41,907 nt of DNA. Origin: an uncultured virus (IMG/VR IMGVR_UViG_2049941000_000098) (Duplodnaviria; Heunggongvirae; Uroviricota; Caudoviricetes). The stretch lies in the IMG/VR virus record IMGVR_UViG_2049941000_000098, one strand, 5' to 3'. The notes under the pieces were generated by a model. That model was not told the DNA's origin, did not search any database, and saw only the letters and a list, made by a program, of their open reading frames with translations. The number at the start of each line of letters is the position of its first letter. The stretch's first letter is position 1. Positions 60 through 35,395 of this stretch are shown here, one piece after another. A program made the translations under genes and the position numbers.

Positions 60-1814
60 TTATTGATACGCCAATTCACGTAAAACACGTTCGATTGATT
101 TTCCACCGATAAGATTCATTCGATTTGACCCGTCATACAAATCCGCGATTGAACCGCCTGTCTTGCCGTATGTGTCCGAAAGGAAAAACGCGCCGACATT
201 GGATTGCAGAACGTCATCGGACGAGTTCTTCGCCTTGACGACACGGTGGCGTTTGAAATCATGCACCGCTTCTTGTACCTCCTGTTCCAACAACGGGTCG
301 GCGGTTTGCCGTATGCGCCCCTCGACCAATCCGCGTTGCCAATGCAAATACGGTCTATCCGTGGAGTCGAGTGATATTCGTATGTTTTCCAACCCCAATA
401 TATCCAATATTTCCTGACGCAACGATTCCGATTGGTATTGGTCGGACGCAAACGACACAAGATTCACTACCTGTGATATATCAACGATAAACTGTTGAAC
501 TTTGCTGATTTTTGTCGCGGCGGGATAATGCGGCGGAATGATTTTCAAACAGAAAACCCGTGTGTGTACGTCAAGATTCTTTTCATTGCGCCCGTCGTAT
601 CGGAAACATGTTATACAACCACGGTCGCCCGCTGTCGAAAGGTCAAGGTATATCGAATGCGGACGGTCGGGGAATTTTATACCGCCAGGTATCAAATATT
701 CAATTATTTGCGTATCATTGTCCGTGGACGCTTCGATATTATCCGTTGTGAATATCGGCACATAATCCATCGGATTTATGTAACTTTCGTAAAGGTATTT
801 CAGGTTCGACATGAACGACCCCTGAACCATCGTCGGCACGCCGCAATGGTTTTGCAACGCCAATGCGATGTTCGCCTTGAAATTCTTTAACAGGTTGACG
901 GGGACGAACCGAATGAACTTGTCTTCCTCACCCGTACCCAAAACCCCGATTGCTTCAAACAAACGTGTTCGTTGTGCGTCGGATTCGATTATGCACGGCT
1001 CGGCAGAACCCGAACCGATGAACACCTCGAACTTTTCCGTGGCGTAACGTTCGGGTTTGACCTCGTATGACACCGATGTGATACACGTCGTCCATTTGTC
1101 GCCCTTGACCGCCTGTTTTCGTTTCTCAACGAATGACGATTGATACGACGCGGACGATATTAGAATCGCAAGCGCGTTGACAGAACCGTCGGGATTTGAA
1201 AAACGGGACACAAGCCTGTCCATCAACTGATTGTACAACAATGTGACCTCTTGATATTCTTCCGCCATACCCGTACCGACACCGCCCGAACGGAAGTTCG
1301 CCTCGTCGAGGATGAAACCCCAAATTGACAGTCCGATTTGGTGTGATTCCGTTGACGCGAAATCGATGTGAAATTTGTTCGGAAACGAAATCGATGATTT
1401 CAACCCTTTGTCGATGGGGAAATTTTCATTGAACCACACGCATTCGTCGAATATGTTGCGCAATTGTAGGAATCCCGATTTTTTCGCCATATCGAGGGAC
1501 ACCGAAAAATACAAACAATATATCTCGGTGTTAAGGGCGAGGTGCAATTGCGCCTGTGGCGAACCCGACGCGAACAACCTATAAACACGGTACGCGAAAT
1601 AATAGTTGGAAAACGTGGTCTTTCCGCCGCCGATGCTACCATCCAATATTATTTCGGATGTCAGGGGGTCAATCGACATGCCTTTGTTTATCCAATATTG
1701 GTAAAGGTCTTGGTTGTTGCAAAAATTCGGGGACGTGACAAATTCCTTGAATGATACAAGATTCACGTTATTCAACACCTCGTCAAGAACGTCGATTATG
1801 TTTTCTTTCGCCAT
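60..1814 (-). CDS. terL: Phage terminase large subunit
   Basis: Walker A DGSIGGGKTT, Walker B FILDEANF, coupling motif ISSA, nuclease Asp in IYLDLS and C-terminal SSDDVL. ATG at 1814 (MAKENIID) preferred because the ORF-track start at 1838 lies inside the promoter box at 1836-1843. Confidence 0.88.
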   Translation of the reverse strand: MAKENIIDVLDEVLNNVNLVSFKEFVTSPNFCNNQDLYQYWINKGMSIDPLTSEIILDGSIGGGKTTFSNYYFAYRVYRLFASGSPQAQLHLALNTEIYCLYFSVSLDMAKKSGFLQLRNIFDECVWFNENFPIDKGLKSSISFPNKFHIDFASTESHQIGLSIWGFILDEANFRSGGVGTGMAEEYQEVTLLYNQLMDRLVSRFSNPDGSVNALAILISSASYQSSFVEKRKQAVKGDKWTTCITSVSYEVKPERYATEKFEVFIGSGSAEPCIIESDAQRTRLFEAIGVLGTGEEDKFIRFVPVNLLKNFKANIALALQNHCGVPTMVQGSFMSNLKYLYESYINPMDYVPIFTTDNIEASTDNDTQIIEYLIPGGIKFPDRPHSIYLDLSTAGDRGCITCFRYDGRNEKNLDVHTRVFCLKIIPPHYPAATKISKVQQFIVDISQVVNLVSFASDQYQSESLRQEILDILGLENIRISLDSTDRPYLHWQRGLVEGRIRQTADPLLEQEVQEAVHDFKRHRVVKAKNSSDDVLQSNVGAFFLSDTYGKTGGSIADLYDGSNRMNLIGGKSIERVLRELAYQ

Positions 1815-1835
1815 TGTTGTTGTGTTTTGTTGATG

Positions 1836-1843
1836 CAAATATA
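1836..1843 (-). promoter_or_regulatory. Bacteroidota -7 promoter box upstream of terminase
   Basis: TATATTTG about 20 nt upstream of ATG 1814. Confidence 0.7.
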
Positions 1844-1954: not shown

Positions 1955-2720
1955 TTATTCGTTTGGAAATTCTGTATCTACCCAATTCAAAAATTCCTTA
2001 AAATATTTAATGTATTGATTTAACAATTCTTTTATTTCGGGTTGAAAATCCACCGCAACATCCATAAATGATTTGTACGATTCTTCGGTGTCTTGACTAT
2101 ACCAATCTATATCATCACCAATACATATTGCGTAATCAACCTGTTCACTTGGATGTGGCAACCACAAACCAACCANNNNNNNNNNNNNNNNNNNNNNNNN
2201 NNNNNNNNNNNNNNNNNNNNNNNNNNNNNNNNNNNNNNNNNNNNNNNNNNNNNNNNNNNNNNNNNNNNNNNNNNNNNNNNNNNNNNNNNNNNNNNNNNNN
2301 NNNNNNNNNNNNNNNNNNNNNNNNNNNNNNNNNNNNNNNNNNNNNNNNNNNNNNNNNNNNNNNNNNNNNNNNNNNNNNNNNNNNNNNNNNNNNNNNNNNN
2401 NNNNNNNNNNNNNNNNNNNNNNNNNNNNNNNNNNNNNNNNNNNNNNNNNNNNNNNNNNNNNNNNNNNNNNNNNNNNNNNNNNNNNNNNNNNNNNNNNNNN
2501 NNNNNNNNNNNNNNNNNNNNNNNNNNNNNNNNNNNNNAAAAATAAGCGGCAATAATGTGGTTTTCATTCCATCCAAATATTTTTCAAACGCCTGTGCGCT
2601 TTCTTGTTTCTGACGTGCTTGACTTTCTAATTCCGCATCACGGCGTGCCGCACGCGCTTTTATGCCCGATAATCTACTCGAAGCCATGTCCTTGATTTTT
2701 AATTGTTGTTTGAAATTCAT
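1955..2720 (-). CDS. Hypothetical protein interrupted by an N gap, with N-terminal LKIKD motif
   Basis: MNFKQQLKIKDMASS... before the gap and an acidic C-terminus ...WVDTEFPNE after it; the join is inferred. Confidence 0.5.
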
Positions 2721-2779
2721 AGTCGTAATGTTTTTTTTATTGTTCATCCACTGAAATATTTAACCCGAATCCGATTTGA

Positions 2780-3116
2780 TTATAGAACACCGTAACTGTC
2801 TCGTTCATCTTCCCATAATGAACTCCAAATAATATCCTCGCAAACACCCGTCATATCACAATAAACGACCTCAATAACGGTGTCATGCGAATGTTTACCG
2901 TCATAGTTTATCGCAAAATCAATTGCTTCATCTTCGTTGTCAAATTCGGCNNNNNNNNNNCGCATCGTCCTCGAATACGGCAAACGGTTTGTAATCCAAA
3001 CCATCACTTATCCGACGCGAATCCGAAACATTCGTTTTTTTCTCATCAACATTCGGTTCGTCGCTATCTTTTACACGACGTGAATCCATCAACCGTTTGA
3101 AATTTATGTTCTTCAT
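2780..3116 (-). CDS. Acidic hypothetical protein with an RRVKDS/NVSDS/RRISD leader
   Basis: MKNINFKRLMDSRRVKDSDEPNVDEKKTNVSDSRRISDG..., continuing after a 10-N gap to ...IIWSSLWEDERDSYGVL; promoter box caaatata at 3144-3151. Confidence 0.6.
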
Positions 3117-3136
3117 ATCTGTAATTTTAAAAATTA

Positions 3137-3385
3137 TCAATCACAAATATACACAATATCTTTCAAATTGGAAATCAAATTTTCCACGAAATCGTCTTCC
3201 CCGATGTCGTCACCCAACAGTTTGTCAACCTGTTTCAGGTACGTTTGGGTAATGACGACACTTCGTATCGCGTCCCGTAATTTGTCAACCGTTTCTTCGG
3301 AGTAGTTGTAAACACCGTTTTCGTTGTCGATGACCGATTGTATTCGTTCGATTTGTTTGGTCAAATCTCTCATCAGTTCGTTCAT
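3137..3385 (-). CDS. Hypothetical protein
   Basis: ORF MNELMRDLTKQ...; 5' end abuts a gap. Confidence 0.55.
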   Translation of the reverse strand: MNELMRDLTKQIERIQSVIDNENGVYNYSEETVDKLRDAIRSVVITQTYLKQVDKLLGDDIGEDDFVENLISNLKDIVYICD

Positions 3386-3399
3386 TTTTNNNNNNNNNN

Positions 3400-3821
3400 T
3401 TTTCAAATTCTTTGTTCAAATCCATTCCTGCGGCGGTATTGCACATCGCGTCGCACAATTCGTTGTACGGATTCCCGTTGTGTCCCTTGACCCATTGGAA
3501 ATCAATCACGGGTCGTTTCTGCGCCAACACCCGTTCCCATGTTTCAAACAGGTCGGTATTCGCGTTGCGTGACCATTTGCCTGACAGGGTGTTCAACGCG
3601 TACATGGAATCGGTGTTCACCGTGACCGACGCGTTCGTTTCGGGCAAATGGTATATCGCGGTTATTATCGCCTTCAATTCCGCGCGGTTGTTCGTTTCGT
3701 TTTCTATTTTCCACGCGCCACGGCGCACCTCGTTCCCGCCACTGTCCAACATCACGTAGGCGAACGCCCCGACATTGTTCTTGTTGGAATAACCACCGTC
3801 TGTGTATATCGTGTATGTCAT
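3400..3821 (-). CDS. rnhA: Ribonuclease HI (3' end in gap)
   Basis: IYTDGG, TNNRAEL, NTDSMYA, NTDL, WVKGHNGNPYNELCD: the D/E/D/D catalytic residues and the His are all present. Confidence 0.93.
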
Positions 3822-3913
3822 GGTTCAATTTTTTCGGGATGAAACTGATTGTCGCGCCACGTTTCGCCTCGTCGGTCAGGACGGTGCAGAACGTCTCTGT
3901 CAGNNNNNNNNNN

Positions 3914-4102
3914 TGTCCGCATTCTCTAATGAATTATGCGGTGTTTTTTGTTTCTTTTTAATTATACTGTTATAAAGAACAATAATGTTACCCTTATCGA
4001 ATGTTGTAAAAGTACGATACGCAATACCGTTGTATTTAAATTTTATTTCATATAGACCGTCGTGACCCTCTACTTCTTTNNNNNNNNNNTTATTGCTGTC
4101 AT
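3914..4102 (-). CDS. RelE/ParE-superfamily (Gp49-like) toxin, partial, not in the ORF track
   Basis: Manual translation of 4079-3914: KEVEGHDGLYEIKFKYNGIAYRTFTTFDKGNIIVLYNSIIKKKQKTPHNSLENA, fitting the GLYEIR...YRIF...IVL...KKTQKTP pattern; probable ATG at 4102; flanked by gaps. Confidence 0.75.
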
Positions 4103-4107
4103 CGTTT

Positions 4108-4606
4108 TTAATACAGATATTCTATATGGCATTCAACATCTTGTTTGTTCATATCGGAAACAAAATTCCTAATCCATCTGTCAATATCACCTTCATCGTT
4201 TGAATAATATTCCGCCTTGTTTGTTTTTATGGTAAACCCGTCTTCTTGTTCAGTTTCCGAAATTTCCGATTTTCTCTTGGCGGTTTGTTCCGAACCACTC
4301 CAAACATATAATCCACACCAAATCAACTCGTCGTCCAGTACGTCGTCATCCTCCGATNNNNNNNNNNAAAACACTTTTTGGAACAAATGTCGGGGTATTC
4401 TTTATTTGTTTGAATTTGTATTTATATTTTTCCTGAACCTTTTGGGGTAATGAATCATAAAACTCTTTGAAATGGTTTCCGTACATCATAATCCGTCTTT
4501 CGGGCTTATTCAAATCGTTATCCATAATCCATTTGGCAAATTGTTTTACCCTTATACATTTGCTGTCACTCATTCGCGTTAACCGTTTCAAATTCAATTT
4601 TTTCAT
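4108..4606 (-). CDS. Hypothetical protein(s) with an RMSDS leader, gap-interrupted
   Basis: MKKLNLKRLTRMSDSK...; acidic C-terminal part after the gap at 4358-4367; promoter at 4634-4641. Confidence 0.55.
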
Positions 4607-4633
4607 ATCCGTATCGTTTTAATCGTTCGGGTG

Positions 4634-4657
4634 CAAATATAATAATCTTTTTATTAC
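4634..4657 (-). promoter_or_regulatory. -7 box with overlapping palindromic operator
   Basis: caaatata at 4634-4641; ataataa-tcttt-ttattac at 4639-4657. Confidence 0.6.
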
Positions 4658-4665
4658 AAACAAAC

Positions 4666-4706
4666 AAAAAAAACACGGGGAAACATTTTTGATTGTCCCC
4701 CCGTGT
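4666..4706 (-). terminator. Intrinsic terminator
   Basis: acacgggg...ccccgtgt stem with an adjacent 8-nt A run (U tail on the - strand). Confidence 0.7.
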
Positions 4707-4737
4707 CCCCTAAACTAACACTTAATCGTAATATGAA

Positions 4738-6112
4738 TCAATATTCTAAACTGTTGATATATTCTTCAACTTCGCGTTCGACATAGTTGCCTTTTTCAAT
4801 GGCACTTATTATTGCATTGTACCAACGGTCGTCAAATTCTACTTCCGATAAATAAACAAAATAATCAGTGTCGTAATCGCCATCCCAATCAAGAATACCA
4901 ACATTATCATCTGCCCTTGCATCACCAAGATAATTACCTGCTTCGTCAATCAAATANNNNNNNNNNTCATAGTTTTATTATTTTTGATTGTTTTTGAATC
5001 GTTAACACCATATTTATTCATAAAGTCGTTGTATTTGTAATCACCATCGTTAAAAACGTGGAAGACAGTGTAATCAGCCACATCGTCTTCGTGCAGGCGT
5101 GAATGTCTTGAATAATTTGGAACTGTGCCGCGTTCCTTTATCCGTTTCGCCAATTTGTACGGGTCTTGGTTGTATCTAACATAATAATGGGCAACCGCNN
5201 NNNNNNNNTTCGGTTTTTCATCGTCGGTGTTCGGTTCGTCGTCAGCGTTTTTGTTGCGGCGTTTCGCACGCATTTTTTCGGCGTAACCGCGCAAATGTAC
5301 GGGTTTCGTCATATCACTGACTTTAGAATCGTTGACCGCCTCCTTCATTTCGTCCGACGCTTCAAATTCAAGGTCGGCGACGTTTTCGGCGATACCCCAT
5401 TTATTCAACAACGCCTTCACAAACCCGTTCGCGTCACCCGTCGCGGCGCACATGTCAATCATGGCGACACCATCCGAACTGTCGGTTTCGTATGTTTCAT
5501 ACTGAACCCCGTCGATTGTGTCACTTTCGTTCGCGTGTTTGTTCACCTCGGCAATCATGTCGTCCTCTGTACCGTCCGTGAACGCGATAAACAAAACACC
5601 GTCAAGTACGTCGGGGGTGTTTTCGTCTTTGATTTTAAGGGAATCGGAAATGCCTTCGTGTACCCAAACACCTTTTAGTTTTTTTGTATTACTTCTAAAC
5701 GGCTCAAATTTCATTTCAACTAAAATATCCCCATCAGACATATTAAGCATAGTTTCTTTTTGAGCCAATGATTGACTTGGTTTTGCACCCCCAACTATCT
5801 TAAATCCCCTGTCAGCCAGATAATCAAAAACTTGGTTTATATCCCATTTGCCAATCTGTTTTTCCAAATACAATTCTAATGAAAGTTTTGTATAAGATAA
5901 ACCATCTTTAATTTGTTTCATATCCTTATTGTTTTTACGTGAATCGGAAATGTTTTCATTGATACACGTCGTCAGATCGGANNNNNNNNNNAATCGTCTT
6001 TTAATGAATGTGATATACCATTCAACAACCTGCGTGTCAATTCCGCATTCGCATCTTCATCAACGAAATATAGACATTTACGTCCGTTGTTATTATCCTT
6101 AACTCGTTTCAT
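4738..6112 (-). CDS. Modular acidic protein(s) with repeated [VI]xD motifs; three gaps
   Basis: MKRVKDNNNG (ATG 6112) ... NISDSRKNNKDMKQIKDG ... GISDSLKIKDE ... AVNDSKVSDM ... GVNDSKT; continuity across gaps is inferred. Confidence 0.55.
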
Positions 6113-6132
6113 GTTCTTATTATTTTAAATTG

Positions 6133-6441
6133 TTAATACCAATCATGTAACCAACCTTGTTCTTGAAAATACAGGCACATGTTTTTAAATTCCTCCTCAT
6201 CATCAATAATCCAATGACCGAATGTAAAAACATCTATGTTATCCCAATCATCAAGTATATGATTAAACTCTTTTTTATATAACTCTTTATATACCTCCTC
6301 AATATACGTTTGAAAATCAAGAAAACTACCCTCGAAATCCGCAACCAACTCTTGCAACCGTTCAAAGGTATTACGTGACATGTTACTTTTCGATACCTCA
6401 ATCAGGGTATCAAAATTATTCACACTAACAGTATAATTCAT
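6133..6441 (-). CDS. Acidic hypothetical protein
   Basis: Complete 102-aa ORF, AT-rich, D/E-rich. Confidence 0.65.
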   Translation of the reverse strand: MNYTVSVNNFDTLIEVSKSNMSRNTFERLQELVADFEGSFLDFQTYIEEVYKELYKKEFNHILDDWDNIDVFTFGHWIIDDEEEFKNMCLYFQEQGWLHDWY

Positions 6442-6442
6442 A

Positions 6443-8818
6443 TCATTCCGTTTTTTTGCTTTGACGCTTGGTAATCTTCACACGTTTCACGTTGTCAGCG
6501 GTCTTCTTTTTGGTTTTCTTTTTACCACCGCAATTGTCCGTAACCTCGGCATCGTCGATGTCCGAATCGTTTTCAACGGGTTCGACATTCGTATCGATGT
6601 CATCGTTGCTATCATCGTCGCTGTCATGGATTTTCAGTTTACCGACCTCGTTGTACGGAACTTCAAATTCTTCCGAACCCTCTTCGTTCTGCCAACGGAT
6701 TACAACGGGTTCTTGACCGTGGAACAACGCGTACTGAACCGTACCACGCTTACCTTTGTATTCGATTTCCTCACCGCGTGCCAACATACGCTCGTCCGTA
6801 ATCGCGTGGCGTTTGTGCTGTTTGTACGAATCACGGATTTCACGAGCGTTCTGTTTCAGTTCGGTTTCCGACGGCAACGAATCGACGATTGTCAGATTGT
6901 AGCCGACGTAGTTTGTCAATTCGTCCTTCAACGCGTCGTAACTGTCGGCGGTTTTCAGGGTGTTGGCATAATCGTATGTGCAAACCCCATGTTGCCCGTT
7001 GTGGCTGTAACATACCATCGTGTCACGGTCGCGGCTTGCCGTTCCGTATGTGTTCGGGAACACGGCGAGAACATCGGAATCCTCAATCAGAAACACAACG
7101 TTTTCCTTAACCTTGCCTTCGGAATCGGTGACACGGCGGTACGCCTGTAGGTTCTTTAAATCCTTTTTGAAATATTTTTCGGCGGCATCGGTGATTTTCC
7201 GACGAATGTTTTTCGCCTTTACCGAATCTTTGATACGCGACANNNNNNNNNNNNNNNNNNNNNNNNNNNNNNNNNNNNNNNNNNNNNNNNNNNNNNNNNN
7301 NNNNNNNNNNNNNNNNNNNNNNNNNNNNNNNNNNNNNNNNNNNNNNNNNNNNNNNNNNNNNNNNNNNNNNNNNNNNNNNNNNNNNNNNNNNNNNNNNNNN
7401 NNNNNNNNNNNNNNNNNNNNNNNNNNNNNNNNNNNNNNNNNNNNNNNNNNNNNNNNNNNNNNNNNNNNNNNNNNNNNNNNNNNNNNNNNNNNNNNNNNNN
7501 NNNNNNNNNNNNNNNNNNNNNNNNNNNNNNNNNNNNNNNNNNNNNNNNNNNNNNNNNNNNNNNNNNNNNNNNNNNNNNNNNNNNNNNNNNNNNNNNNNNN
7601 NNNNNNNNNNNNNNNNNNNNNNNNNNNNNTCACGAATTAAAACCCCATTGTAACCCGTACCTGTGAAATACGGTGTGTCAACCAAATACGGACTAAAATT
7701 TTCAACAATATCGTTGTTTGAATTGTCCCTTACACGGCGGCTGTCGGAAACACGTTTACCGTCTTCCCATATTATCCGAGTGTCTTCTTCACCGTATTTG
7801 GAATATGTTGTTTTGTATATTGTAACGGAATTATCATTCGTTTTAAGACTTTCGGCATATTGTATTGCGTCGTCCATAAAACTAAAACCCTTGAACAAAT
7901 CATTATTACTATCACCCGATACCATTACCTCGTATTTAGTCCAAGTGTCTTTAAATTCTATTCCCCTATAAGCGGGNNNNNNNNNNNNNNNNNNNNNNNN
8001 NNNNNNNNNNNNNNNNNNNNNNNNNNNNNNNNNNNNNNNNNNNNNNNNNNNNNNNNNNNNNNNNNNNNNNNNNNNNNNNNNNNNNNNNNNNNNNNNNNNN
8101 NNNNNNNNNNNNNNNNNNNNNNNNNNNNNNNNNNNNNNNNNNNNNNNNNNNNNNNNNNNNNNNNNNNNNNNNNNNNNNNNNNNNNNNNNNNNNNNNNNNN
8201 NNNNNNNNNNNNNNNNNNNNNNNNNNNNNNNNNNNNNNNNNNNNNNNNNNNNNNNNNNNNNNNNNNNNNNNNNNNNNNNNNNNNNNNNNNNNNNNNNNNN
8301 NNNNNNNNNNNNNNNNNNNNNNNNNNNNNNNNNNNNNNNNNNNNCGATTGAACGTCCCGACATACGGCGGCGTGAATCGGCGACATCCTCGAATCTCCAT
8401 TTTGCATCTTTATACGCATTGCCGCGACGGTCGGACGGGTCGATTTTATCCAAAACACCGTCGTTATCAAACAAATGTTTTTGCAATTGGTTTTCAATCG
8501 CCATCATGCACGTTTTATCGTTTATGACCGCCTCGAACGCATCCCATTTTTTTTCTGAATTGTTAATATGCCATTCGGGGCTTATTTCCCAATCGTATGT
8601 CGTCATGCCGTTTTTATCCTTGACCGTCCAATAGTCNNNNNNNNNNTCAATAATCACGTCAAGCCACGCCTGCGTTTCGGGGTCTTGCGCGTCGTAACCA
8701 ACATAATCTTTAACCACGTCAACGGTAATATCAACACCGTCCTGCTCTGCATCGTATATAGCAATTTGAACCCAATAACGTATTGTTTCAATATCGGCTT
8801 TATCACTAACTCGTTTCA
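6443..8818 (-). CDS. Large modular protein(s) with repeated R[VI]xD motifs; several long gaps
   Basis: MKRVSDK, DVADSRRR, KRVSDSRRVRDN, SRIKDS, RKITDA, RRVTDS, EIRDS, HAITDE, LKIHDS, EVTDN; may be one or several genes. Confidence 0.55.
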
Positions 8819-8838
8819 TATTTTTATAATTTAATTGT

Positions 8839-10068
8839 TTAACGTTCATTCGGTTTTTTGTACCGTTCGCCCAACACGCGGTAAATGGTTTGTTCGTCGG
8901 GGGTGTTCACAAGGTTGCCGCATGAATCGAACAACCCGTTTTCAACCAACCGATAACCCTTCCGTTTCGCGCAATCACGCAAACGCATATTTTCCTCCTT
9001 TGTCCCCGTGGTTGACAACAGGTGTGTCGCCAATTGCCCGTCTGCGGCGCGAATCAGCACCAAGGGGACGTTATCGTAATACCCACGGATAATTGTGTTA
9101 TCCGCAACCATTTTCGTAAATCTTGCGCCGTCTAATTCGTTCTCAATGTTTTTAAATTCCGAATCCGAACATTCGACGACGACGGGCATTGTCGAAATCG
9201 TTTCACACCCGCGTCGGTATTCGCCCGACACCGCCCATTTGTGACCGTCAAGAACGCGTTTCAACGAATCCGCCACCAATTCCACCTCTCGGCGTGTGTG
9301 GTTTTCGACACGCGCCGCCAATTCGGAATCGGCAACTTTGCCCTTCAACATGTCAAGGTGCTTGCACGCGCCACGGAAATAGTAACCCTGACAGGTGCAA
9401 CCCCAATGGTCTTTGATTTTGATTAGACGGTATGTCGCGTCACCGTCCTTTGACACGGCAAATTGGCTGTCGCTAATCCGTGTCAGTTTGTAATTGTCAC
9501 CCATATTTTTGTTTTTGTTGTTGTCACCGATGACTTTGCGTTCGTCTTCCTTTTTCGCGTCATCGTCCTTTTCGGCGATGTAAACCGAACCCTCTTCGTC
9601 TTTGCCGACAATTTCGTCGTCAGGGTTGTTGTCGAGGTATTCTTTGGCGGACGCAAGGTTTTCCTTTTTGTATTTTTTAGTCAACACGGGTTCGCCGTCG
9701 GATTCCATCAANNNNNNNNNNNNNNNNNNNNNNNNNNNNNNNNNNNNNNNNNNNNNNNNNNNNACGTATTCCTCATCGTCCGCGTCAGCGATGTGGCGGT
9801 TGGAATATTCCGACCACAAATCAATCACGCGGGCGTATGCCGCGCTGTCCTTCGTTTTGCGGTAACGCGCGATTTGGTCTTTCAATTCCGAACGTAGGGC
9901 GGAATCGGAAAACGCGTGTTCAAGGGTTTCCTTTGATTGGTGCTTACGACCCACGTTGAAACCCTTCCGATAGTTGTTGTTGTCGGATTTAAGGTTTTTG
10001 TCGGGGTCGGCGGTCATACCCACCTGCTTACCCAATTTGTAATCGTCCAATTCTGCGATTTTTGACAT
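8839..10068 (-). CDS. Fusion: acidic xD-motif N-terminus + SWIM zinc finger + PolX-like palm/thumb lacking catalytic Asp
   Basis: CTCQGYYFRGACKH (CxC-x-CxH); GEYRRGCET; TTGTKEENMRLRDCAKRKGYRLVENGLF...EQTIYRVLGERYKKPNER matches the PolX C-terminal domain. Confidence 0.8.
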   Translation of the reverse strand: MSKIAELDDYKLGKQVGMTADPDKNLKSDNNNYRKGFNVGRKHQSKETLEHAFSDSALRSELKDQIARYRKTKDSAAYARVIDLWSEYSNRHIADADDEEYXXXXXXXXXXXXXXXXXXLMESDGEPVLTKKYKKENLASAKEYLDNNPDDEIVGKDEEGSVYIAEKDDDAKKEDERKVIGDNNKNKNMGDNYKLTRISDSQFAVSKDGDATYRLIKIKDHWGCTCQGYYFRGACKHLDMLKGKVADSELAARVENHTRREVELVADSLKRVLDGHKWAVSGEYRRGCETISTMPVVVECSDSEFKNIENELDGARFTKMVADNTIIRGYYDNVPLVLIRAADGQLATHLLSTTGTKEENMRLRDCAKRKGYRLVENGLFDSCGNLVNTPDEQTIYRVLGERYKKPNER

Positions 10069-10128
10069 TGTATTTGTTGTTTTAAATCACGGGGGACGGT
10101 TTCAATTCCGACCCCCGTAATGTTGTTT

Positions 10129-12862: not shown

Positions 12863-13183
12863 TTATAGTTTTTTGATTGTTTTAAGTATTTCGCTAAACT
12901 TTTTTTCTTTTTTCAGTTCGCCAACCACAACCAATATGGCATCACGTCTTGCGTCGGTTAAAATATCTTTCAACCTTGTTGCGTTAATACTCCCACTTTT
13001 GTGATGCCACACACAACTACTAAATTCAAATCCGCTGTTGACATAAGTCGGTTGGTAATACAGGTCGTCGGTGTCAAAAAACAAAGACCTGTTCCAAACG
13101 ACAACAAATCCATCTTCGTCATAGCCGACACAAACTCTGCGTTTCATCTGTCGGCGCAACCGTTTCAGTAACCGTGTTTTCAT
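12863..13183 (-). CDS. Hypothetical protein (MKTRLLKRLRR N-terminus)
   Basis: Tightly packed ORF in an operon. Confidence 0.7.
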   Translation of the reverse strand: MKTRLLKRLRRQMKRRVCVGYDEDGFVVVWNRSLFFDTDDLYYQPTYVNSGFEFSSCVWHHKSGSINATRLKDILTDARRDAILVVVGELKKEKKFSEILKTIKKL

Positions 13184-14166
13184 TGTTCCAAATCTTTAAG
13201 AACGCGTTTCAAATATTCCGCAATCCCGACAAGTTCAGGTTTCAATCCGCAAACGTCCCCCTTACACAGTTTCTGTGACATACTAAAGGTGTTGTACTGC
13301 CAATTTTCGGGATTGTCAAAAAACTTACACAATTCGGATAATTCATCCTGATAACGTTCAACCGTGCTTTCAGGTAGTTTGTTGAACGCCTCGCGTCGTT
13401 TTTCGTTTATTTCGTCGGATGCGGAATTTGAAACAAGCGTCCAAAGCAAATGTTCCGCGATTTTGATGTTCAATTTGTCGATACGGCGTTCACACAATTC
13501 GTCGTACTCGGCTTTGGTAATATTGACCCAACCCCCGTCACGTTCGGTTTTGTAAACGTTCAGGTCGATTCTTTTACCGTCGGGGGTGATTGCGTACAAC
13601 AACGCCCGTGTGTCGAAATCACCGTGTTTCTTGTCGGCAAGGAATGTTTGTGTGTATATCTCGTATTTGCCGCGTTTGGGCATATACGGCATCGTAATCG
13701 GGAACATTTCGTCGATTATCCTGTCGTCACCCGAACCGAAACAATCCGACGGATTTTCCGCGTCAATCATCACACAACGGTCAATATCGTGATAGGTGAC
13801 TTTGCCGTCAAGTGTTTCCATGCGGAACAGACTTGACATTCGGGGACATTGTATTTCCGATTTTAAACCCCGCCTTTTCAAATACTCGTCCGATTCTATT
13901 GGAAAACTTTTTCCATTCTCGTCAAAGAAATCCTTATCGGTTATCGGGGTTAACGGTTGACCCTCCATAAGACGTATCAATATGTTTTTCGTAAACCCGA
14001 ACGAACTTCCGCTGTGTCCGTCGTCCATCAACGATTTGTACGCTTTCAACGCCGATTTGTAACACGAACAATCGAAATCAAAGTCGTCACCGTCAAAATT
14101 GAAATCAGGGTTGATTTCCTTACATACTTTGCGGCATTCCATTTCCGCCCATTCTCTCATACTCAT
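13180..14166 (-). CDS. Hypothetical protein with a GHSGSS motif
   Basis: Start moved to MSMREWAE (14166) because a promoter box lies at 14202-14209. Confidence 0.75.
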   Translation of the reverse strand: MSMREWAEMECRKVCKEINPDFNFDGDDFDFDCSCYKSALKAYKSLMDDGHSGSSFGFTKNILIRLMEGQPLTPITDKDFFDENGKSFPIESDEYLKRRGLKSEIQCPRMSSLFRMETLDGKVTYHDIDRCVMIDAENPSDCFGSGDDRIIDEMFPITMPYMPKRGKYEIYTQTFLADKKHGDFDTRALLYAITPDGKRIDLNVYKTERDGGWVNITKAEYDELCERRIDKLNIKIAEHLLWTLVSNSASDEINEKRREAFNKLPESTVERYQDELSELCKFFDNPENWQYNTFSMSQKLCKGDVCGLKPELVGIAEYLKRVLKDLEQ

Positions 14167-14248
14167 TTTGTTGTTGTTTTTGTTATTAAAAATCAATGTG
14201 GCAAATATATAAATTGTTTTAACATAACAAATGTTTGTTATATTTTTT

Positions 14249-14647
14249 TTAGTGAAAAATTTTCGTGCTGATATACATATCGTCAGGTGCGGCGACCGCA
14301 ATGCCTTTGTCAATCCAACCGTTGTAATCAAGATAGTGTGACTTGTACCATTCGTGTAATTCGGCGATTCGTTCACCGAGCAATTCGTCACAACTTTCGA
14401 CGATTGACGATTTGTACCGCCGACATGCCTCGTCTTCGTCCACGGTCATGGTTGACAACGGGCGCAAATACGGTTTCACGTCCGCAATCGGGACGGCGAT
14501 TTGGTTTGACATGAACGGTTTTAATATCACAACCTTTCGTGTGTTCGTAACCATTGTCAAATCGTATGCCTCGCCGCCGTATTCGACCTTTATGTCGTAT
14601 GGCAAAAACGCCGTCAATTCACGGTATAATATCGTTTCCTTGTTCAT
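14249..14647 (-). CDS. Hypothetical protein (KPYLRPLS type)
   Basis: ORF with an ATAA/ATGA-type overlap. Confidence 0.7.
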   Translation of the reverse strand: MNKETILYRELTAFLPYDIKVEYGGEAYDLTMVTNTRKVVILKPFMSNQIAVPIADVKPYLRPLSTMTVDEDEACRRYKSSIVESCDELLGERIAELHEWYKSHYLDYNGWIDKGIAVAAPDDMYISTKIFH

Positions 14648-25219: not shown

Positions 25220-26523
25220 TTAGCAAAATACTGAAAGTCTTTTACAAGGTGCGTTTACAAGCACTCTTACATCATCTGTTGTAAAAACAACATTTGATTT
25301 ACTTGAAATTAGGTATTTTTTGAGAATGTTCACACTCCCATTTATGTCCGCATTAAGAACTTTTCCGTCAGCAGACTTGTACAAACCTCTGTGGATGCGT
25401 TTTCCACTGAATTTCGTAGTCTCATTCTCGCCATAAGTAGGAATTTTATCATCGTCAAGACAACTTGCTTTAGATGTGTAACTTTCTTCTTGTGGACAAT
25501 ATTTGATTCCGTGCAACTCACATTTGTATTTCAACTTTTGTCGGAACTTATGCAATGGTATCATAACAAAGTTTTGGTTGTTAACCTTACCGATGTTGAT
25601 TTCTTGTTTTTGTTCCTTATTATATCCGATTACCAATGTGGTAACTCCGTTTTCAATGCACTTGTTGATTATCAACTGAACGGACTTGTTGAAATAATCG
25701 TTGATGCGGTTGTACCTACCATTGATTAGACGAAGCATTCGTTTGGTGTTATGACTTATACCTTTCTTGTCGTATTCTCCCTTTAGCGTTGCAACTTTCT
25801 TATTGTAATAGTGGTTTATGTTTTTCAGTCTTCGTCCATCAATCAAGAATTGCTGAACGCCACCATTAGAAAAGATTGTACTTGCAACGAGGTTGTCTAA
25901 TCCCAAGTCTATTGACATATAGCCATCACCTACCGATTGTTTTAAATCCTTCTTTGATTCGTAGATAAACTCTATTGAAAATTGTTTTCCGTTGAATTGC
26001 GGTATTATCCTTATTTCTTTAAATTCGGAAACGCACCTAATATTCTTTGGGATTGTGAATAGGATTCGTCTTTCGTTGATTTGGTACTTCTTACGGAATT
26101 CCTTTGTTAGACCTATTGCCACACGACCATCCTTTTGGATACGGCAACTCCTACCTTGAATTGTGCAGATAGCAAGTTCGTCTGCCTTCTTGTATTTTGG
26201 AAGTTTGACCTTATCGGAATACTTACCGCTTTTCTTCAATGTAAGAAGTTTGAAGAACGACTGCATATCCCTATCTNNNNNNNNNNGTATTTGTTGGGAA
26301 CAATCCGAAAGAAGGATGCTATAATTTTCATTCTCCTTGCACTCTTTGTAATTTTCGTAATAAGGAAGGTATTTTTGTGTATTGAAATAGTGTTGTCTAA
26401 CGGAGTATAGACCNNNNNNNNNNCATTGTACAACCTTGCTGAATGATAGCACAAGTGTGCGAGTATAGACAAGTCAACCTCGCTATTGTGTTCAGTTTGT
26501 GTTATTTTTGTGGTCAAATACAT
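25220..26523 (-). CDS. tnpB: TnpB RNA-guided nuclease (solo, IS1341-like), two 10-N gaps
   Basis: N-terminal LCYHSARLYN; RuvC-I SIDLGLDNL; LVIGYN at the canonical RuvC-II position with QEESYTSK downstream; RuvC-III NADING; no tnpA visible. Confidence 0.92.
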
Positions 26524-28959: not shown

Positions 28960-29823
28960 CTATTCCCCCAAACATAAGTTTATGTAATCCACTATTTCCT
29001 GTTCAGTCACTTCCTTTAACGCGTCCTCCAACGTCATTTCACCCGTCCGCGCGGTTTTCAAACGTTCGATAATGTCCGCATACGAATCCCGAACCTCGGT
29101 CGCCTTCATCGCGTACTGTTTCGCCGTGAATATCTCCGACGCGGGACGGCATTTTATCGGTTCGTATTCCACGACCCATTTCCCGTCAACCAACGAACAA
29201 ACCGCCATCATCGGTGTTCTGTTCTGTTCGTCGATACGAATCCCCCGCAGAAAAGACCCTGGGCGCACGACACGTATGTTTTCACCGACCATTTCGTCAG
29301 CGTACACGGTATGGTCGTGTCCCAACAACACCAACGTTTCGTCCGCCGTCCCGACGACATCATCCGTCTTACAACACCATCGTCCGTCGTCGATGTTCCA
29401 AAAACCGTGGTACACACACACCGTCGGTTTCCCGTTCGTTTTAAGGGGTAATTCGTTCGTCAGGACACAACCCCCCAAGACACGTCCGCCCGTGAAATCG
29501 GTGAACAAACCCATTTCACAGAAAAGGTTGTATGACGTTCTGACGTTGAACTCGTCGTTGTTGTACAGTGTGTCGTGGTTTCCGTTTATCGTGTATATCG
29601 GGTTCACGGCTTTTCTGAACACGCGCCCGACAGCCGCTTTCACGAAATCGGGGACGGTGGGTTTGTCAAACACGTCACCACCAATCACAATCGGCATGCC
29701 GTTGTCGTTCGCGTACCCGACGACATAATCAAGTTTCTTACATATGTCGTCCAACACGTCGCCCGTTCGGACGTTGCACACGGACGTTATGTGCAAATCG
29801 GTTATGAATACGAATTTCGTCAT
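28960..29823 (-). CDS. sbcD: SbcD/Mre11-like metallophosphoesterase nuclease
   Basis: TDLH, GGDVFD, NGNHD, YHG, LGHDH, PGS motifs; ATG 29823 overlaps the upstream stop. Confidence 0.9.
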   Translation of the reverse strand: MTKFVFITDLHITSVCNVRTGDVLDDICKKLDYVVGYANDNGMPIVIGGDVFDKPTVPDFVKAAVGRVFRKAVNPIYTINGNHDTLYNNDEFNVRTSYNLFCEMGLFTDFTGGRVLGGCVLTNELPLKTNGKPTVCVYHGFWNIDDGRWCCKTDDVVGTADETLVLLGHDHTVYADEMVGENIRVVRPGSFLRGIRIDEQNRTPMMAVCSLVDGKWVVEYEPIKCRPASEIFTAKQYAMKATEVRDSYADIIERLKTARTGEMTLEDALKEVTEQEIVDYINLCLGE

Positions 29824-30119
29824 TTGTTCGCCGAATAAAAATCGTGATACTTCCTTTCCTGTTTGCGGCGCATTTCCGCGATACGTTCCTCGGAACACAG
29901 CGACGGGTTCAATTCCTGAACCTTGCGCCGTGCGCGGGTGATAGCCTCGAACGACGGCATCCTTTCCGTCTTCCAACACTTCAACGCATATCCGAACGAA
30001 CAATCTTCCAAACCATAATGTTCCGCCACTTTGTAAATCAGGGCGAAATCGTCATCCCGTGTGTCGGGGTCGTTTTCCAATATCGATTTCACCAAATCGA
30101 ATGTCTTGTTCTTTTCCAT
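29820..30119 (-). CDS. Hypothetical phage protein (TRDDD...ITRARRKVQE)
   Basis: ORF behind the promoter/operator at 30152-30175. Confidence 0.7.
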   Translation of the reverse strand: MEKNKTFDLVKSILENDPDTRDDDFALIYKVAEHYGLEDCSFGYALKCWKTERMPSFEAITRARRKVQELNPSLCSEERIAEMRRKQERKYHDFYSANK

Positions 30120-31750: not shown

Positions 31751-32104
31751 TTAAACATTATGTCCGTTACCGAACGTCTTGTCAAACCCGCGTATGAACC
31801 CTATTCCGTATCGGGGGTCTAACCACATAAGGAACAGCATGAACAGTTGTTCCTCGAACCACAGCGTTAACGTGGAACGGGTGTTCTCCCTGCGTTCGCA
31901 AACCACGGACACGGGGTCGTAACCCTCACCTCCGCCGTTGACGAACGTCTTGGTGGAATCGGCGCGAAGGAACACGTCTGTCCGTTTCTTCACGTCCGCC
32001 GACACATTCCACTGTTTCAGGAATCCCGTGGCGTTGAACTTGCCGTCCGAACGGCGTTCGATTGTGTAACCGTTGTATTCGGTCGTTTTGTTGTTGTTTT
32101 CCAT
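31751..32104 (-). CDS. KilA-N domain DNA-binding protein
   Basis: IERRSDGKFNATGFLKQWN...FL..TK.F...LW...LF..FLMWLDPRY. Confidence 0.8.
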   Translation of the reverse strand: MENNNKTTEYNGYTIERRSDGKFNATGFLKQWNVSADVKKRTDVFLRADSTKTFVNGGGEGYDPVSVVCERRENTRSTLTLWFEEQLFMLFLMWLDPRYGIGFIRGFDKTFGNGHNV

Positions 32105-32127
32105 ATTCAAATGTTTTTTGACGGGGG

Positions 32128-32299: not shown

Positions 32300-32410
32300 A
32301 CTTTCAATTTGTAATCAAAACACCCCGTTTTGCTTTCAATTTTTATTAACGATTCTCGAAGTGTAAGTTTTAAATCGTAATCAAAACACCCGTTTTTACT
32401 TTCAATTTAT
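32300..32410. repeat. Tandem CTTTCAAT...GTAATCAAAACACCC units
   Basis: Units at 32300-32350 and about 32372-32410; related to 30675-30725 and 33275-33297. Confidence 0.8.
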
Positions 32411-33006
32411 TACTTCACCCGTTTCGATTTCCCGTCCGCGATTTGGTAAACATGCCGAACGTCGTCCGCCGTTATGCGTTGGTCGTGTGACACCAACAAC
32501 AGGTCGAAACCCAAATCACCGCACAGTTCGTTCACGAACCCGATGAACGCCCCGAAATAGGAATCCGACACCTGTGTGAACGCTTCGTCCAAGAAAATGA
32601 TTCTGCGTCGGTTCAGTTTCACTATCAGATAAACAAGGAACACAAACGATATGACGGTTATTATTCCGCCGCCCTCGGCTTCCGACAAATCCGTCGAATA
32701 GTCGCCTTTGTTCAGGACGAATCGGTTGGATTCCATGTCGTATTCCACCGTGTAATCGAAATTGAATATCGACCGTATCGCGGCGTTCGCCAATTCCTCA
32801 CATTCCTTTATCGACGAACCTGACAGTAACGGGCGCACCTGTTTCAAAGCCAACAGGGAACGTTCTATCAATTCCCGTTCGCGGTTTATCCCGACGAGGG
32901 ATTGTTCCGCGTTGTCGATGACGGATTGGACGCGGCGTATGTCGTTCGTCAGTTCGTTATGACGTAACAGTTGCGCGTTGGCGCGTCGTTCAAGTTCGGG
33001 GTTCAT
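32410..33006 (-). CDS. SbcC/Rad50-like ABC ATPase, C-terminal half
   Basis: Coiled coil, signature-like LSEAEGGG, Walker B IIFLDEAF, H-loop VSHD; no Walker A. Confidence 0.85.
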   Translation of the reverse strand: MNPELERRANAQLLRHNELTNDIRRVQSVIDNAEQSLVGINRERELIERSLLALKQVRPLLSGSSIKECEELANAAIRSIFNFDYTVEYDMESNRFVLNKGDYSTDLSEAEGGGIITVISFVFLVYLIVKLNRRRIIFLDEAFTQVSDSYFGAFIGFVNELCGDLGFDLLLVSHDQRITADDVRHVYQIADGKSKRVK

Positions 33007-33294: not shown

Positions 33295-34464
33295 TCACAC
33301 CATTTTGTTCCCGCATACGGGGCAGATGTGGTTGTCTATCATGTTTTGTTTTTCACGTATCGTCTTTTGCGCGGTTCGGCACGCGTCCATCAGTTCGGAC
33401 AGGCGCGTAAGTCGGTTTATCCCGTCGGACGTTTCGTTCACGCGTCGGGTCAGGTTGACGCATCGTTCGGCGGTTTTGACCGTTTCGGACAACCGTTTTA
33501 TCCGTGGTTGCGCGGAACGGGATTCCGTGATAAGGTTTTCCAATTCCGTGATTAAATCCGTTCTGTTGGACTTTTTCCGTTCGGATAGGGAAATATACCG
33601 TTCACACAGTGATATTCGTTTCTGGGTGTTTTCTTGGCGTTTCTCGGATTCCGTTTGTTCGGTGACGTAACCGTTCAATTCGTCCAAACGTTTGATTTCA
33701 TCTTTCACGTCCGAAATTTGTTCGCAATGCGCGATGACGATTTTCAAATCCTTAATCCGTGTTTCGGTTTCCCGACGTGCGTTTTCCAACCCCGACAATT
33801 CTTCGACCGTCTGCGTTTGTTTCTCGCGTTCCTTCAGGCGTTCCATGTGTTCGGCGACCGTGGCGATGTTATCGTGTATCGCGGATTCCCGTTCCGATAA
33901 CGACGACAATTGTGTCTTGTTGTCCGTTATCATCTGTGACAGTTGTTTGAACGCGCCGTTGTTCTGTTCTTTCTTTTTGTTCAGTTTGGAAACCGCATCG
34001 TTCATGTCGTCGAACGCCTTTGACGATGAAAGAATCTCAAGAATGCGTTTCTGTGAAAACTCCAACAACAACGGTTTACTGAACTGTGTGAAAAAGTTTA
34101 ATTGGTATTTTTGTTCGTAGTTGTCAATAACCCCGAACCCGTTGAAATCGTCTATTTCGGGCGGGACGGTGCGGTTCAGTTTTTGGTACACGGTGTCACC
34201 AAGTTGGTACGTCGGGGAATCCTTTTTAGTCTTCGTCACGGATAATGTGCGGTCGTCGTCGGAATATTTGATGTCGATTCGCATTTCATCCGTCCCGTAT
34301 TTCAGAAATCCCTGTTTGAATCGGTTGTTGCACGCGGCGTTCACGGCACGCATGCACGCGGATTTGCCCTGTGACGATTCACCGACAAGAATGGTGAACC
34401 CGTCCACGGTGATGTCCGCATCCGTAATCGATTGGAAATTATGTACTTTGATGTTTACTGACAT
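33295..34464 (-). CDS. SbcC/Rad50-like ABC ATPase, N-terminal half ending at the zinc hook
   Basis: VHNFQS, Walker A GESSQGKS, Q-loop FFTQF, long coiled coil, terminal CPVCG. Confidence 0.88.
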   Translation of the reverse strand: MSVNIKVHNFQSITDADITVDGFTILVGESSQGKSACMRAVNAACNNRFKQGFLKYGTDEMRIDIKYSDDDRTLSVTKTKKDSPTYQLGDTVYQKLNRTVPPEIDDFNGFGVIDNYEQKYQLNFFTQFSKPLLLEFSQKRILEILSSSKAFDDMNDAVSKLNKKKEQNNGAFKQLSQMITDNKTQLSSLSERESAIHDNIATVAEHMERLKEREKQTQTVEELSGLENARRETETRIKDLKIVIAHCEQISDVKDEIKRLDELNGYVTEQTESEKRQENTQKRISLCERYISLSERKKSNRTDLITELENLITESRSAQPRIKRLSETVKTAERCVNLTRRVNETSDGINRLTRLSELMDACRTAQKTIREKQNMIDNHICPVCGNKMV

Positions 34465-34522: not shown

Positions 34523-35395
34523 TTAAATGCCTAAATGTAATTGAATCGGTTTGTTTTGTTGTTCGGATTCACGTTTGTCGTTGTAGTATTTTTTGATGGT
34601 TTTGATTATGTACGCCAAACCCTTTTGTGTCACGCGAATCATCACACCGACGCGTCCGACACCCCTTTTGTCCTCATACGCGTATTCCAACAGTTTGAAA
34701 TAACCCGAATCGATATACTTTTGATACGGGCGGATATTGCGTCCCTTTCCGAACAGGATTTCGGTTTCGCGTAATATACTGAACAGTTTGTTGCGACCGA
34801 AATTGGGGACACCGATGACTTTTTTGTTGATAATCTTCGCGGCGTATTCCACCGACAGTGTGTCGTCGGATTTCGTAACCGCGTCATAAAATTCCACCTT
34901 TGGTTTTTGTTCCGTCAATTGCTGGTTCTGTTTTTCAACCGTATGTTCGGCGATTGACAGTTGTTCACGCGCCGCCGCCAATTCCTGTTCGTGTTTCCTG
35001 ATTGTCGCGTCGGCTATTTTCAACGCGCGTGCCATAATCAATTCGGGCGTATCGTCGGGGGTCGTGGCGATGTAACCGCCGTGTTTGCGAATTGACGGCA
35101 ATATTTCCGATGTGACCCATTTGCGGAACGCCTTCGCTTCGGGTTTACGGCTATCCAAAATGACATCGTACAAACCGTCTTCGTTGATGAATGTCGCAAA
35201 TTGTTGTCTTCCAAGTGAATCGACGATGGGGTTACTTGAAATAACCCCACAACTCAAACGGTCTTTGACCCTACTTGGTTGAAGGTCTAACACCTTACAC
35301 ACATCCGCAAGACAAAACAACGGTTCGTCAGGTGTACCCGATGTTCGGATTTTACCGAATTGCGGGTTCTCGAAAATTTTGATTTGTTCGTTCAT
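34523..35395 (-). CDS. Phage antirepressor (BRO-N + ANT/KilAC)
   Basis: FENPQFGKIRT, INEDGLY..ILDSRKPEAKAFRKWVTSEILPSIRKHGGY; KPKVEFYD, GRNKLF, PYQKYID, VTQKG. Confidence 0.92.
   Translation of the reverse strand: MNEQIKIFENPQFGKIRTSGTPDEPLFCLADVCKVLDLQPSRVKDRLSCGVISSNPIVDSLGRQQFATFINEDGLYDVILDSRKPEAKAFRKWVTSEILPSIRKHGGYIATTPDDTPELIMARALKIADATIRKHEQELAAAREQLSIAEHTVEKQNQQLTEQKPKVEFYDAVTKSDDTLSVEYAAKIINKKVIGVPNFGRNKLFSILRETEILFGKGRNIRPYQKYIDSGYFKLLEYAYEDKRGVGRVGVMIRVTQKGLAYIIKTIKKYYNDKRESEQQNKPIQLHLGI

Follow-up and report, generated by a model that had tools for sequence, protein, structure and literature searches.

Prohead proteases recognise short motifs, commonly written L/I-x-E for T4 (worded in passages on this phage as 'C-terminal to glutamic acid' and 'LIE-9') and S/A/G-x-E for phiKZ, and the internal proteins of T4 carry a capsid-targeting leader. 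In the passages cited here, the enzymes of T4, phiKZ, 201phi2-1 and SPN3US are described as cutting after Glu (PMC5694885), as is the processing of the phage P1 capsid protein at E120|S121 (PMC9024508), and Asp at position P1 of the T4 IPIII leader stops processing, not targeting (PMC9026906). The same passages report or propose self-cleavage of T4 gp21 at both ends and of SPN3US gp245 at its C-terminus (PMC9026906, PMC5694885), a preference of gp245 for Ser at P1' (PMC10052503), the core and internal proteins of T4 (PMC9958956), degradation of the core proteins at many sites (PMC9958956, PMC5694885), and poor conservation of the internal proteins, interpreted as an arms race (PMC9026906). Polyvalent proteins, in turn, are predicted to be packaged in phage heads (Iyer et al. 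2017, PMC5512222). Here we analysed a 41,907-nucleotide stretch of an uncultured member of the Caudoviricetes (IMG/VR record IMGVR_UViG_2049941000_000098; hereafter the window), in which genes at positions 1955-10068, next to that of the large terminase (terL), encode modular proteins punctuated by a short motif with a conserved Asp. Our search of the open-access literature, with subscription journals outside its scope, found no description of an Asp-cutting prohead protease or of this polyprotein arrangement.

We propose that the motif is recognised by a T4-type (Peptidase_S77) prohead protease which the phage itself encodes, with Asp in place of Glu at P1 of the site, and that this enzyme cuts polyproteins loaded into the head into their modules; we put the probability of this reading at about 0.65. 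A first-pass annotation of the window had listed 22 motif strings, all of which lie in minus-strand coding frames, and had placed the motif next to terL and only rarely elsewhere. Permuting residues 500 times within each coding segment bore this out. In the region 1955-10068 (22 segments, 2207 aa), [RK][VI].D occurred 18 times versus a mean of 3.62 (maximum 10), [VILM].DS 21 times versus 2.75 and the tandem form 5 times versus 0.02, counts reached in none of the 500 shuffles, whereas the Glu controls yielded 4 versus 2.56 for [RK][VI].E (122/500 shuffles) and 1 versus 2.01 for [VILM].ES. Over the rest of the window (77 segments, 10,001 aa), [RK][VI].D was found 19 times versus 11.55 (15/500) and [VILM].DS 9 times versus 7.56 (167/500), and the tandem form was absent. 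The motif is thus enriched ~5- to 8-fold in the region and near background elsewhere. It is better written [RK]-phi-x-D-S, phi being hydrophobic, and is mostly doubled into a nine-residue linker, phi-S-D-S-[RK]-[RK]-phi-K-D. The statement that most open reading frames (ORFs) of the region carry it needs amending: the listed strings are there, but the RNase H gene (3285-3821) and the 102-aa ORF between the two polyproteins are motif-free, and several of the ORFs taken as units are fragments of longer polyproteins whose frames are lost across runs of ten Ns. Such runs break reading frames in this scaffold, which contains 28 N-runs, 13 of them within 1955-10068.

The protease and capsid evidence was drawn from relatives, as the window itself stops at terL. 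The very divergent terL, without a match in Pfam and PHROG searches, is ~27% identical over 84% of its length to the annotated terL of ~80-kb Vibrio phages (tblastn) and 92% identical to terL in two IMG/VR contigs; it served as the anchor for finding relatives, in a clade with genomes of ~135-150 kb. One relative, G001, is a complete, ungapped genome of 142,338 bp with direct terminal repeats (197 proteins, 43,311 aa), syntenic with the window at 67-90% DNA identity. Within 1955-10068, just three stretches align to it by blastn, namely 5325-5652 (83% identity), 6088-7196 (73%, to G001 97165-98259) and 8834-10082, and the remaining modules differ. At the equivalent place upstream of its terL, G001 encodes polyproteins of 584, 774 and 686 aa with linkers such as VSDSRRVKD, ISDSRKIKD and VADSRRIKD.

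Enrichment was also evident across the G001 proteome, with the tandem form at 18 versus 0.2 expected (maximum 2 in 300 shuffles) and [RK][VILM].DS at 28 versus 5.0, while phi-x-E-S and [RK]-phi-x-E stayed at background and the Glu, Asn and Thr variants showed no enrichment. The 18 tandem sites use both Asp codons (GAT 10, GAC 8) and both Ser codon families (AGY 8, TCN 10), and the 13 that are exactly 27 nucleotides long average 0.60 identity in nucleotides and 0.67 in amino acids, which indicates selection on the peptide rather than on the DNA. Because codons vary freely, we ruled out that a repeat or recombination linker acting on the DNA is the main cause. The tandem form is limited to eight ORFs. 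Three of these, small or 411 aa in size, are encoded immediately upstream of the protease; the others are the three polyproteins, a protein of 512 aa and a PolX-like protein beside terL. Single [RK]-phi-x-D-S sites mark the 542-aa capsid protein described below and its upstream neighbour. In the complete genome G004, from a distant sub-clade (capsid protein 42% identical), [RK]-phi-x-D-S occurs 23 times versus 6.3 (maximum 14 in 100 shuffles), concentrated in the capsid protein, the protease and a few large proteins. This genome contains neither nine-residue linkers nor a polyprotein homologue, and homologues of the 774-aa polyprotein were absent from all three complete distant sub-clade genomes searched. 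The G004 pattern indicates that the Asp site is clade-wide and the linker-joined polyproteins are peculiar to the sub-group of the window.

By its matches to Pfam Gp23 (5.4e-15, starting at residue 99) and phrog_138, the 542-aa protein of G001 is a major capsid protein of the T4 type, and its modelled fold matches the capsid proteins of P1, S6, phi-kp24 and T4 (gp23/gp24), the best match being the phage P1 head protein 9ukm_A (E 1.6e-8). Homologues form at least 230 clusters at E<=1e-5, all metagenomic. Its site, at residues 74-78, recurs 10-20 residues ahead of the conserved core in all 121 aligned sequences (41-99% identity), with K/R at P4 in 108, I/V at P3 in 121, Asp at P1 in 121, Ser at P1' in 106 and P2 variable. 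The model shows three helices at the N-terminus that lead up to the site and stop exactly at the invariant Asp. By alignment and model, the site corresponds in position and pattern to the maturation cut of T4 gp23.

Directly upstream of the capsid gene, G001 encodes a prohead protease (Peptidase_S77, 7.7e-8, above the Pfam cut-off; phrog_207, 7e-24; PDB 5JBL, T4 gp21, E 0.0038), and its portal matches Portal_T4 (2.3e-6). The 5JBL alignment pairs the stretches IEHP and GVSSRGLG with their gp21 counterparts, and both are kept in all relatives; we take them to hold the catalytic His and Ser. A Peptidase_S77 gene was seen in G001 and as 10 distinct proteases of related loci. All 10 carry F[RK]-phi-x-D-S near residue 15 and, just behind the catalytic domain, [KR]-V-[ST]-D-S and L-[RK]-D-S. 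Sites on both flanks agree with the self-cleavage reported for gp21 and gp245. Among the closest cluster representatives in a library of 1.84 billion proteins, the N-terminal site is present in 8/8 that have the N-terminus and the first C-terminal site in 11/11 that reach it. The 138 more distant representatives (P0160-P0297) are mostly ~500 aa long, the protease being fused to a long C-terminal part, and hydrophobic-x-Glu-[SAG] is the commonest motif in 121 of them by a crude, composition-sensitive tally, a hint that the Asp rule may be confined to the sub-family of our query.

The polyproteins themselves consist of 5-8 modules each. The five multi-site proteins of G001 comprise 30 modules (median 94 aa, range 19-183), 21 net acidic and 7 net basic, without significant pairwise similarity, in keeping with the unrelated, mostly acidic units of ~60-100 aa noted in the first-pass annotation. 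A search with the 774-aa protein retrieved 27 homologous polyproteins, one identical and 26 covering 14-53% of it; they are chains of differing modules rejoined each time by the same linker, and many begin MK[RQ][VI][KR]D or MRQIKD, that is, with the second half-site. The window pieces match these homologues module for module (6112-4738, for example, is like P0126, P0128 and P0144). In the AlphaFold model of the 774-aa protein, all eight sites fall in segments with a predicted local distance difference test (pLDDT) score <50, between modules modelled with confidence (pLDDT up to 89). Some linkers, such as that at 5901-5954 in the window, retain an in-frame ATG preceded by an A-rich spacer, which lacks a stop codon but otherwise resembles the genuine 5' leaders at 6112 and 8819, and together they look like a former gene start; the double site thereby looks as though the terminus of one former gene had been joined to the leader of the gene after it.

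No peptidase domain was detected by Pfam in the window pieces or the homologues, and no recognisable effector domain by Pfam and PHROG in the window modules. Neither the window pieces nor the G001 polyproteins matched a named Pfam or PHROG family, matches among the 27 aligned polyproteins being limited to Pfam LPD11 in one (P0143) and an unnamed PHROG in one. Foldseek with the 774-aa model found no PDB match at E<=0.001. Two G001 proteins with several sites each, 2286-4580 (-) and 85159-85938 (-) (loci L003 and L007), have a common N-terminus, MS(K)DFL.GLV.V.N; the former (764 aa), encoded well away from the head module, contains long acidic repeats, and the latter (259 aa), near the portal, is charged, repetitive and scaffold-like in look, with five sites.

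The linker shared with the capsid protein and protease of relatives suggests that the polyproteins are probably cut apart after Asp inside the capsid, at [RK]-[VI]-x-D|S. Two kinds of protein would be encoded upstream of terL: small ones whose short N-terminal leader ends in the site, and polyproteins built like 'beads on a string', their unrelated modules of ~20-180 aa being linked through the double site phi-S-D|S-[RK]-[RK]-phi-K-D|. Both kinds would be built into the prohead core, by analogy with the internal proteins of T4 and the ejection proteins of phiKZ and SPN3US. Once activated, the protease would cut every linker, discarding the six-residue spacers and the leaders and leaving the folded modules in the capsid as separate small proteins. 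With a double site made of the C-terminal site of one former gene and the N-terminal leader of the next, modules could be freely fused, split and swapped. Enrichment, conservation at the protein level, the position of the linkers and a site common to the capsid protein and protease of relatives are direct observations; from them we infer bond cleavage, the cut position, entry into the prohead and later delivery to the host. The first-pass interpretation is partly supported: the motif in a capsid propeptide and a prohead protease gene, both of which it had proposed looking for, were found in relatives, as a Gp23-type capsid protein with the Asp in 121/121 homologues and a Peptidase_S77 gene, and an Asp-specific analogue of T4/phiKZ cleavage is a fair description given that the characterised proteases cut after Glu in the passages cited above, with the site evidence coming from sequences of relatives.

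Several points weigh against this proposal. The protease and capsid protein were seen in relatives only, whose DNA identity to the window is just 67-90%; the clade is uncultured, a search of the GenBank phage collection gave no close cultured relative, and cleavage and presence of the polyproteins in virions are predictions. The failure of T4 gp21 on Asp at P1 (PMC9026906, in the passage on the IPIII leader) means that a real change in the S1 pocket would be needed. At its third (last C-terminal) site, the protease representative P0153 reads L-R-E-S in place of L-R-D-S, so that either this site tolerates Glu or it goes unused in that phage. The conserved capsid site could in principle be a structural element. 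Leaders are only modestly in excess in G001 ([RK]-phi-x-D in the first 35 residues in 25/196 proteins versus 12.4, shuffle maximum 25). The two structure models are both mediocre, with mean pLDDT of 55 and 59; in the former, that of the 774-aa polyprotein, 379/774 residues score <50, which makes the placement of the eight sites in linkers just moderately strong (chance ~0.49^8). Finally, the modules lack known function, so nothing independent ties them to the capsid.

The sites may truly be cut and yet the multi-site proteins be scaffold or core, like gp22, gp67 and gp68 of T4, or inert head filling, rather than cargo that acts in the host. We regard this as unlikely, although it has real arguments: T4 core proteins are degraded at many sites in the descriptions cited (PMC9958956, PMC5694885), G001 has motif-rich, scaffold-like proteins, namely the 259-aa protein at 85159-85938 and one at 77142-78377 that adjoins the protease, and enzymatic or anti-defence domains were recognised in none of the modules. 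However, the modules are predicted to fold and, with a median of 94 aa, are seemingly too big for the exit through capsid pores proposed for T4 peptides. Their content differs sharply among close relatives while flanking genes are kept, which is unexpected for a scaffold and typical of the poorly conserved internal proteins of T4 as the cited passage presents them (PMC9026906). In addition, one homologue contains LPD11, a domain of predicted head-delivered polyvalent proteins.

The peptide might instead be an end-piece of small genes retained upon fusion, with a role in targeting, binding, translation start or recombination, and either uncut or cut by another protease. The identity of polyprotein N-termini with the second half-site (MKRVKD), the leader-like ATG and A-rich spacers kept in some linkers, and shuffling breaks that fall exactly at linkers would all fit, but we consider this improbable because it leaves unexplained [KR]-[IV]-x-D-S with an invariant Asp in the capsid protein and on both flanks of the protease domain. 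Moreover, 27 nucleotides at 60% identity with freely varying codons are a poor substrate for homologous recombination, and conserved P4, P3, P1 and P1' with a free P2 is the pattern of known T4 and SPN3US sites. As for chance, the pattern is short and degenerate, was defined after looking at proteins rich in Asp, Ser, Arg and Lys, and single phi-x-D-S strings occur at about background rate in unrelated proteins. Composition-preserving shuffles nevertheless never attained the observed counts, the enrichment is lost with Glu, Asn or Thr in the pattern, and dozens of proteins on other contigs also contain the nine-residue tandem form, so that we hold an origin in chance or composition to be negligible and treat it as ruled out.

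If the protease reading is correct, a family that cuts after Glu in T4, phiKZ, 201phi2-1 and SPN3US, as far as the cited passages go, would have a second P1 specificity, providing a natural Asp/Glu enzyme pair for learning how the S1 pocket reads a side chain. A tailed phage would then use a polyprotein strategy in which many small proteins come from one chain and are released from it by the capsid protease; sequence alone would suffice to list the proteins probably located inside the capsid across a large uncultured clade (at least 230 capsid clusters, E<=1e-5); the fast-evolving small modules would form a pool of candidates for host-takeover or counter-defence activity; and foreign proteins might be loaded into capsids by means of leader plus linker, a use that the T4 capsid-targeting sequence already has. 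A bolder version, which we offer tentatively and at less than even odds, is that the linker is a plug-and-play cargo tag: small genes that gain 'MKRVKD ... VSDS' ends, alone or chained, would be loaded into the prohead, freed by the Asp-specific protease and enter the host together with the injected DNA. The hypervariable chains next to terL would then be swappable host-takeover or anti-defence arsenals, and the capsid cargo of the clade would be readable from sequence.

The features of the region are collected in Table 1. Window N-terminal leaders that end in the site are MKRVSD, MKRVKD, MKKLNLKRLTRMSDS, MKNINFKRLMDSRRVKD and MNFKQQLKIKD, an arrangement of the T4 internal-protein type.

Table 1. 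Predicted features of the terL-side region, in window coordinates.
Feature	Positions	Strand	Remarks
Large terminase (terL)	60-1838	-	Very divergent; anchor for finding relatives
Leader MNFKQQLKIKDM of ORF 2145-2747	2685-2720	-	ORF contains a 362-N gap
Tandem linker NVSDSRRISDG	3000-3032	-	Same small protein as leader 3063-3116; module resumes behind gap at 2783-2950, which equals the C-terminal module of P0128
Leader MKNINFKRLMDSRRVKDS of small protein	3063-3116	-	Part of 3000-3116
N-terminal leader MKKLNLKRLTRMSDSK	4559-4606	-	Leader type as in small G001 head-module proteins, MNLK[KR]LMDS[KR][KR]IKD
Polyprotein 2, at least 6 modules	4738-6112	-	Read across 10-N gaps 5982-5991, 5199-5208 and 4957-4966; module order found gap-free in P0126, P0128 and P0144
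Site GVNDSKTIKNNKTM	4968-5009	-	Runs into gap 4957-4966; ungapped counterparts in P0136, P0137 and P0143 lead into a further site
Tandem linker AVNDSKVSDM, then short basic module MTKPVHLRGYAEKMRAKRR...	5310-5339	-	Basic module recurs in homologues
Most conserved module, ~95 aa, ENTPDVLDG...DEMKEA, ferredoxin-like alpha/beta fold	5340-5621	-	In 27/27 aligned polyproteins, with many invariant columns; pLDDT 83-89 in model of G001 orthologue
Tandem linker GISDSLKIKDE	5622-5654	-	Coding frame
Linker NISDSRKNNKDMKQIKDG	5901-5954	-	Site, then in-frame A-rich spacer and ATG
N-terminal half-site MKRVKD(N), polyprotein 2	6092-6112	-	Coding frame
102-aa acidic ORF between the two polyproteins	6133-6441	-	Motif-free; conserved, G001 97205-97513
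Polyprotein 1	6443-8819	-	Starts MKRVSD, Lys-rich tail at end; gaps 8637-8646, 7977-8344 and 7243-7629; orthologue is an ungapped 686-aa ORF, L001 1869-3929
Six single sites, C-terminal part of polyprotein 1	6617-7240	-	Kept in G001 orthologue
Single site KIHDS	6617-6634	-	Polyprotein 1
Single site AITDE	6791-6805	-	Polyprotein 1
Single site EIRDS	6824-6841	-	Polyprotein 1
Single site RRVTDS	7118-7138	-	Polyprotein 1
Single site RKITDA	7184-7201	-	Polyprotein 1
Single site SRIKDS	7220-7240	-	Polyprotein 1
Tandem linker KRVSDSRRVRDN	7722-7757	-	Coding frame
Site DVADSRRR	8364-8387	-	Coding frame
N-terminal half-site MKRVSD(K), polyprotein 1	8799-8819	-	Upstream A-rich leader resembles that of 6112 start
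409-aa protein, C-terminal Pol-beta-thumb	8839-10068	-	Pfam DNA_pol_B_thumb 1.6e-11; candidate sites are five phi-x-D-[SA] strings, AFSDS, HIADA, RISDS, KVADS and LVADS; CxC...CxH stretch, SWIM-like label by eye only

ESM Atlas neighbours of the most conserved module are ACT or AsnC/Lrp-like (template modelling scores 0.5-0.66), a generic ferredoxin-like resemblance that is not diagnostic, and the search with this module gave no feature match. The density of N-runs in the polyprotein region is ~3x that of the rest of the window, and the dense gaps and frame shifts fit a source sample whose strains differ in module content. A fragment at 3915-4079 (-) matches Pfam Gp49/DUF891, a HigB/RelE-type toxin family (1.2e-10, profile positions 36-86 of 90), and a possible N-terminal half of the gene follows the leader MKKLNLKRLTRMSDS at 4606 (4370-4606, -); between the pieces lie an unrelated, acidic segment of 82 aa (4111-4356, -) and two gaps of ten Ns each. 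If the two pieces are one gene, a toxin-like module may bear a head-protease leader, and the arrangement may equally be a scaffolding artefact.

Nearly all window genes lie on the minus strand, and a tRNA gene scan of the window found none. Elsewhere in the window, also on the minus strand, are a 403-aa protein with a Tad3 domain (type I Thoeris inhibitor; 13180-14391; Pfam 9.3e-19, phrog_24386 1e-58), a 410-aa IS605 OrfB/TnpB-like protein (25220-26452; OrfB_IS605 1.9e-16, Cas12f1-like TNB 2.9e-10) and a BspA-type leucine-rich-repeat protein (40037-41518; LRR_5 1.8e-74) with a 1825-aa relative in G001 at 127379-132856. The intervals 28960-30003, 32410-33006, 33295-34464 and 35684-36937 (-) contain a phosphoesterase of the SbcD type, pieces of a split SbcC-like ATPase and a gene resembling ATP-dependent DNA ligases; interspersed with these are an Ant/Bro anti-repressor (34523-35395) and a KilA-N protein (31751-32110).

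Compared with described systems, the clade is like T4 in the families of its protease, capsid protein and portal and in the protease gene adjoining the capsid gene. The T4 substrates are gp23, gp24, gp22, gp67, gp68, the internal proteins IPI-III and Alt. The predicted clade substrates include, unlike these, long polyproteins with up to eight double sites, and a K/R preference at P4 and Ser at P1' are added to the T4 rule. The conserved acidic residue is Asp, Glu motifs lying at background in both the window and G001. Leaders of the clade look unlike the T4 capsid-targeting sequence, as judged without alignment. As in the T4 system, in its cited descriptions, the candidate site is short, with a hydrophobic P3 and an acidic P1, and lies where the capsid propeptide ends, at the termini of the protease itself, within small core proteins and after the leaders of non-essential, fast-evolving internal proteins (PMC9958956, PMC9026906); T4, however, requires Glu at P1 and is blocked by Asp (PMC9026906). 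The enzymes phiKZ gp175 and SPN3US gp245 offer, in the passages cited, further likenesses: they cut many head-internal proteins at a three-residue motif and at several positions each, favour Ser at P1' and process themselves C-terminally, and their cargo is ejected into the host (PMC10052503, PMC5694885). Their motif is A/S/G-x-Glu, their cuts strip long N-terminal propeptides rather than separate module chains, and they are jumbo phages, larger than the clade's genomes.

In phage P1, which supplied the top structural match for the capsid model, the capsid protein is cut before Ser, as predicted for the clade, but after Glu, in the cited account (PMC9024508). It packages anti-restriction (Dar) proteins in its head, although these are separate and large, not linker-joined modules. 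The polyvalent proteins, as far as their cited description goes, resemble the polyproteins of the clade in being multi-module, encoded beside head-packaging genes, predicted to be packaged and delivered, and rapidly shuffled (PMC5512222). Several unrelated domains are indeed encoded beside the packaging genes here, and P0143 bears LPD11, a domain defined from such proteins; by Pfam, however, this is the one of 27 homologues with a conflict-enzyme or LPD domain, the other 26 and the window pieces having none. Polyvalent proteins contain recognisable conflict enzymes and, where processed, built-in peptidase domains, whereas the modules of the clade are small, belong to no known family and lack a built-in peptidase, and the uniform linker that joins them matches the predicted site of the head protease.

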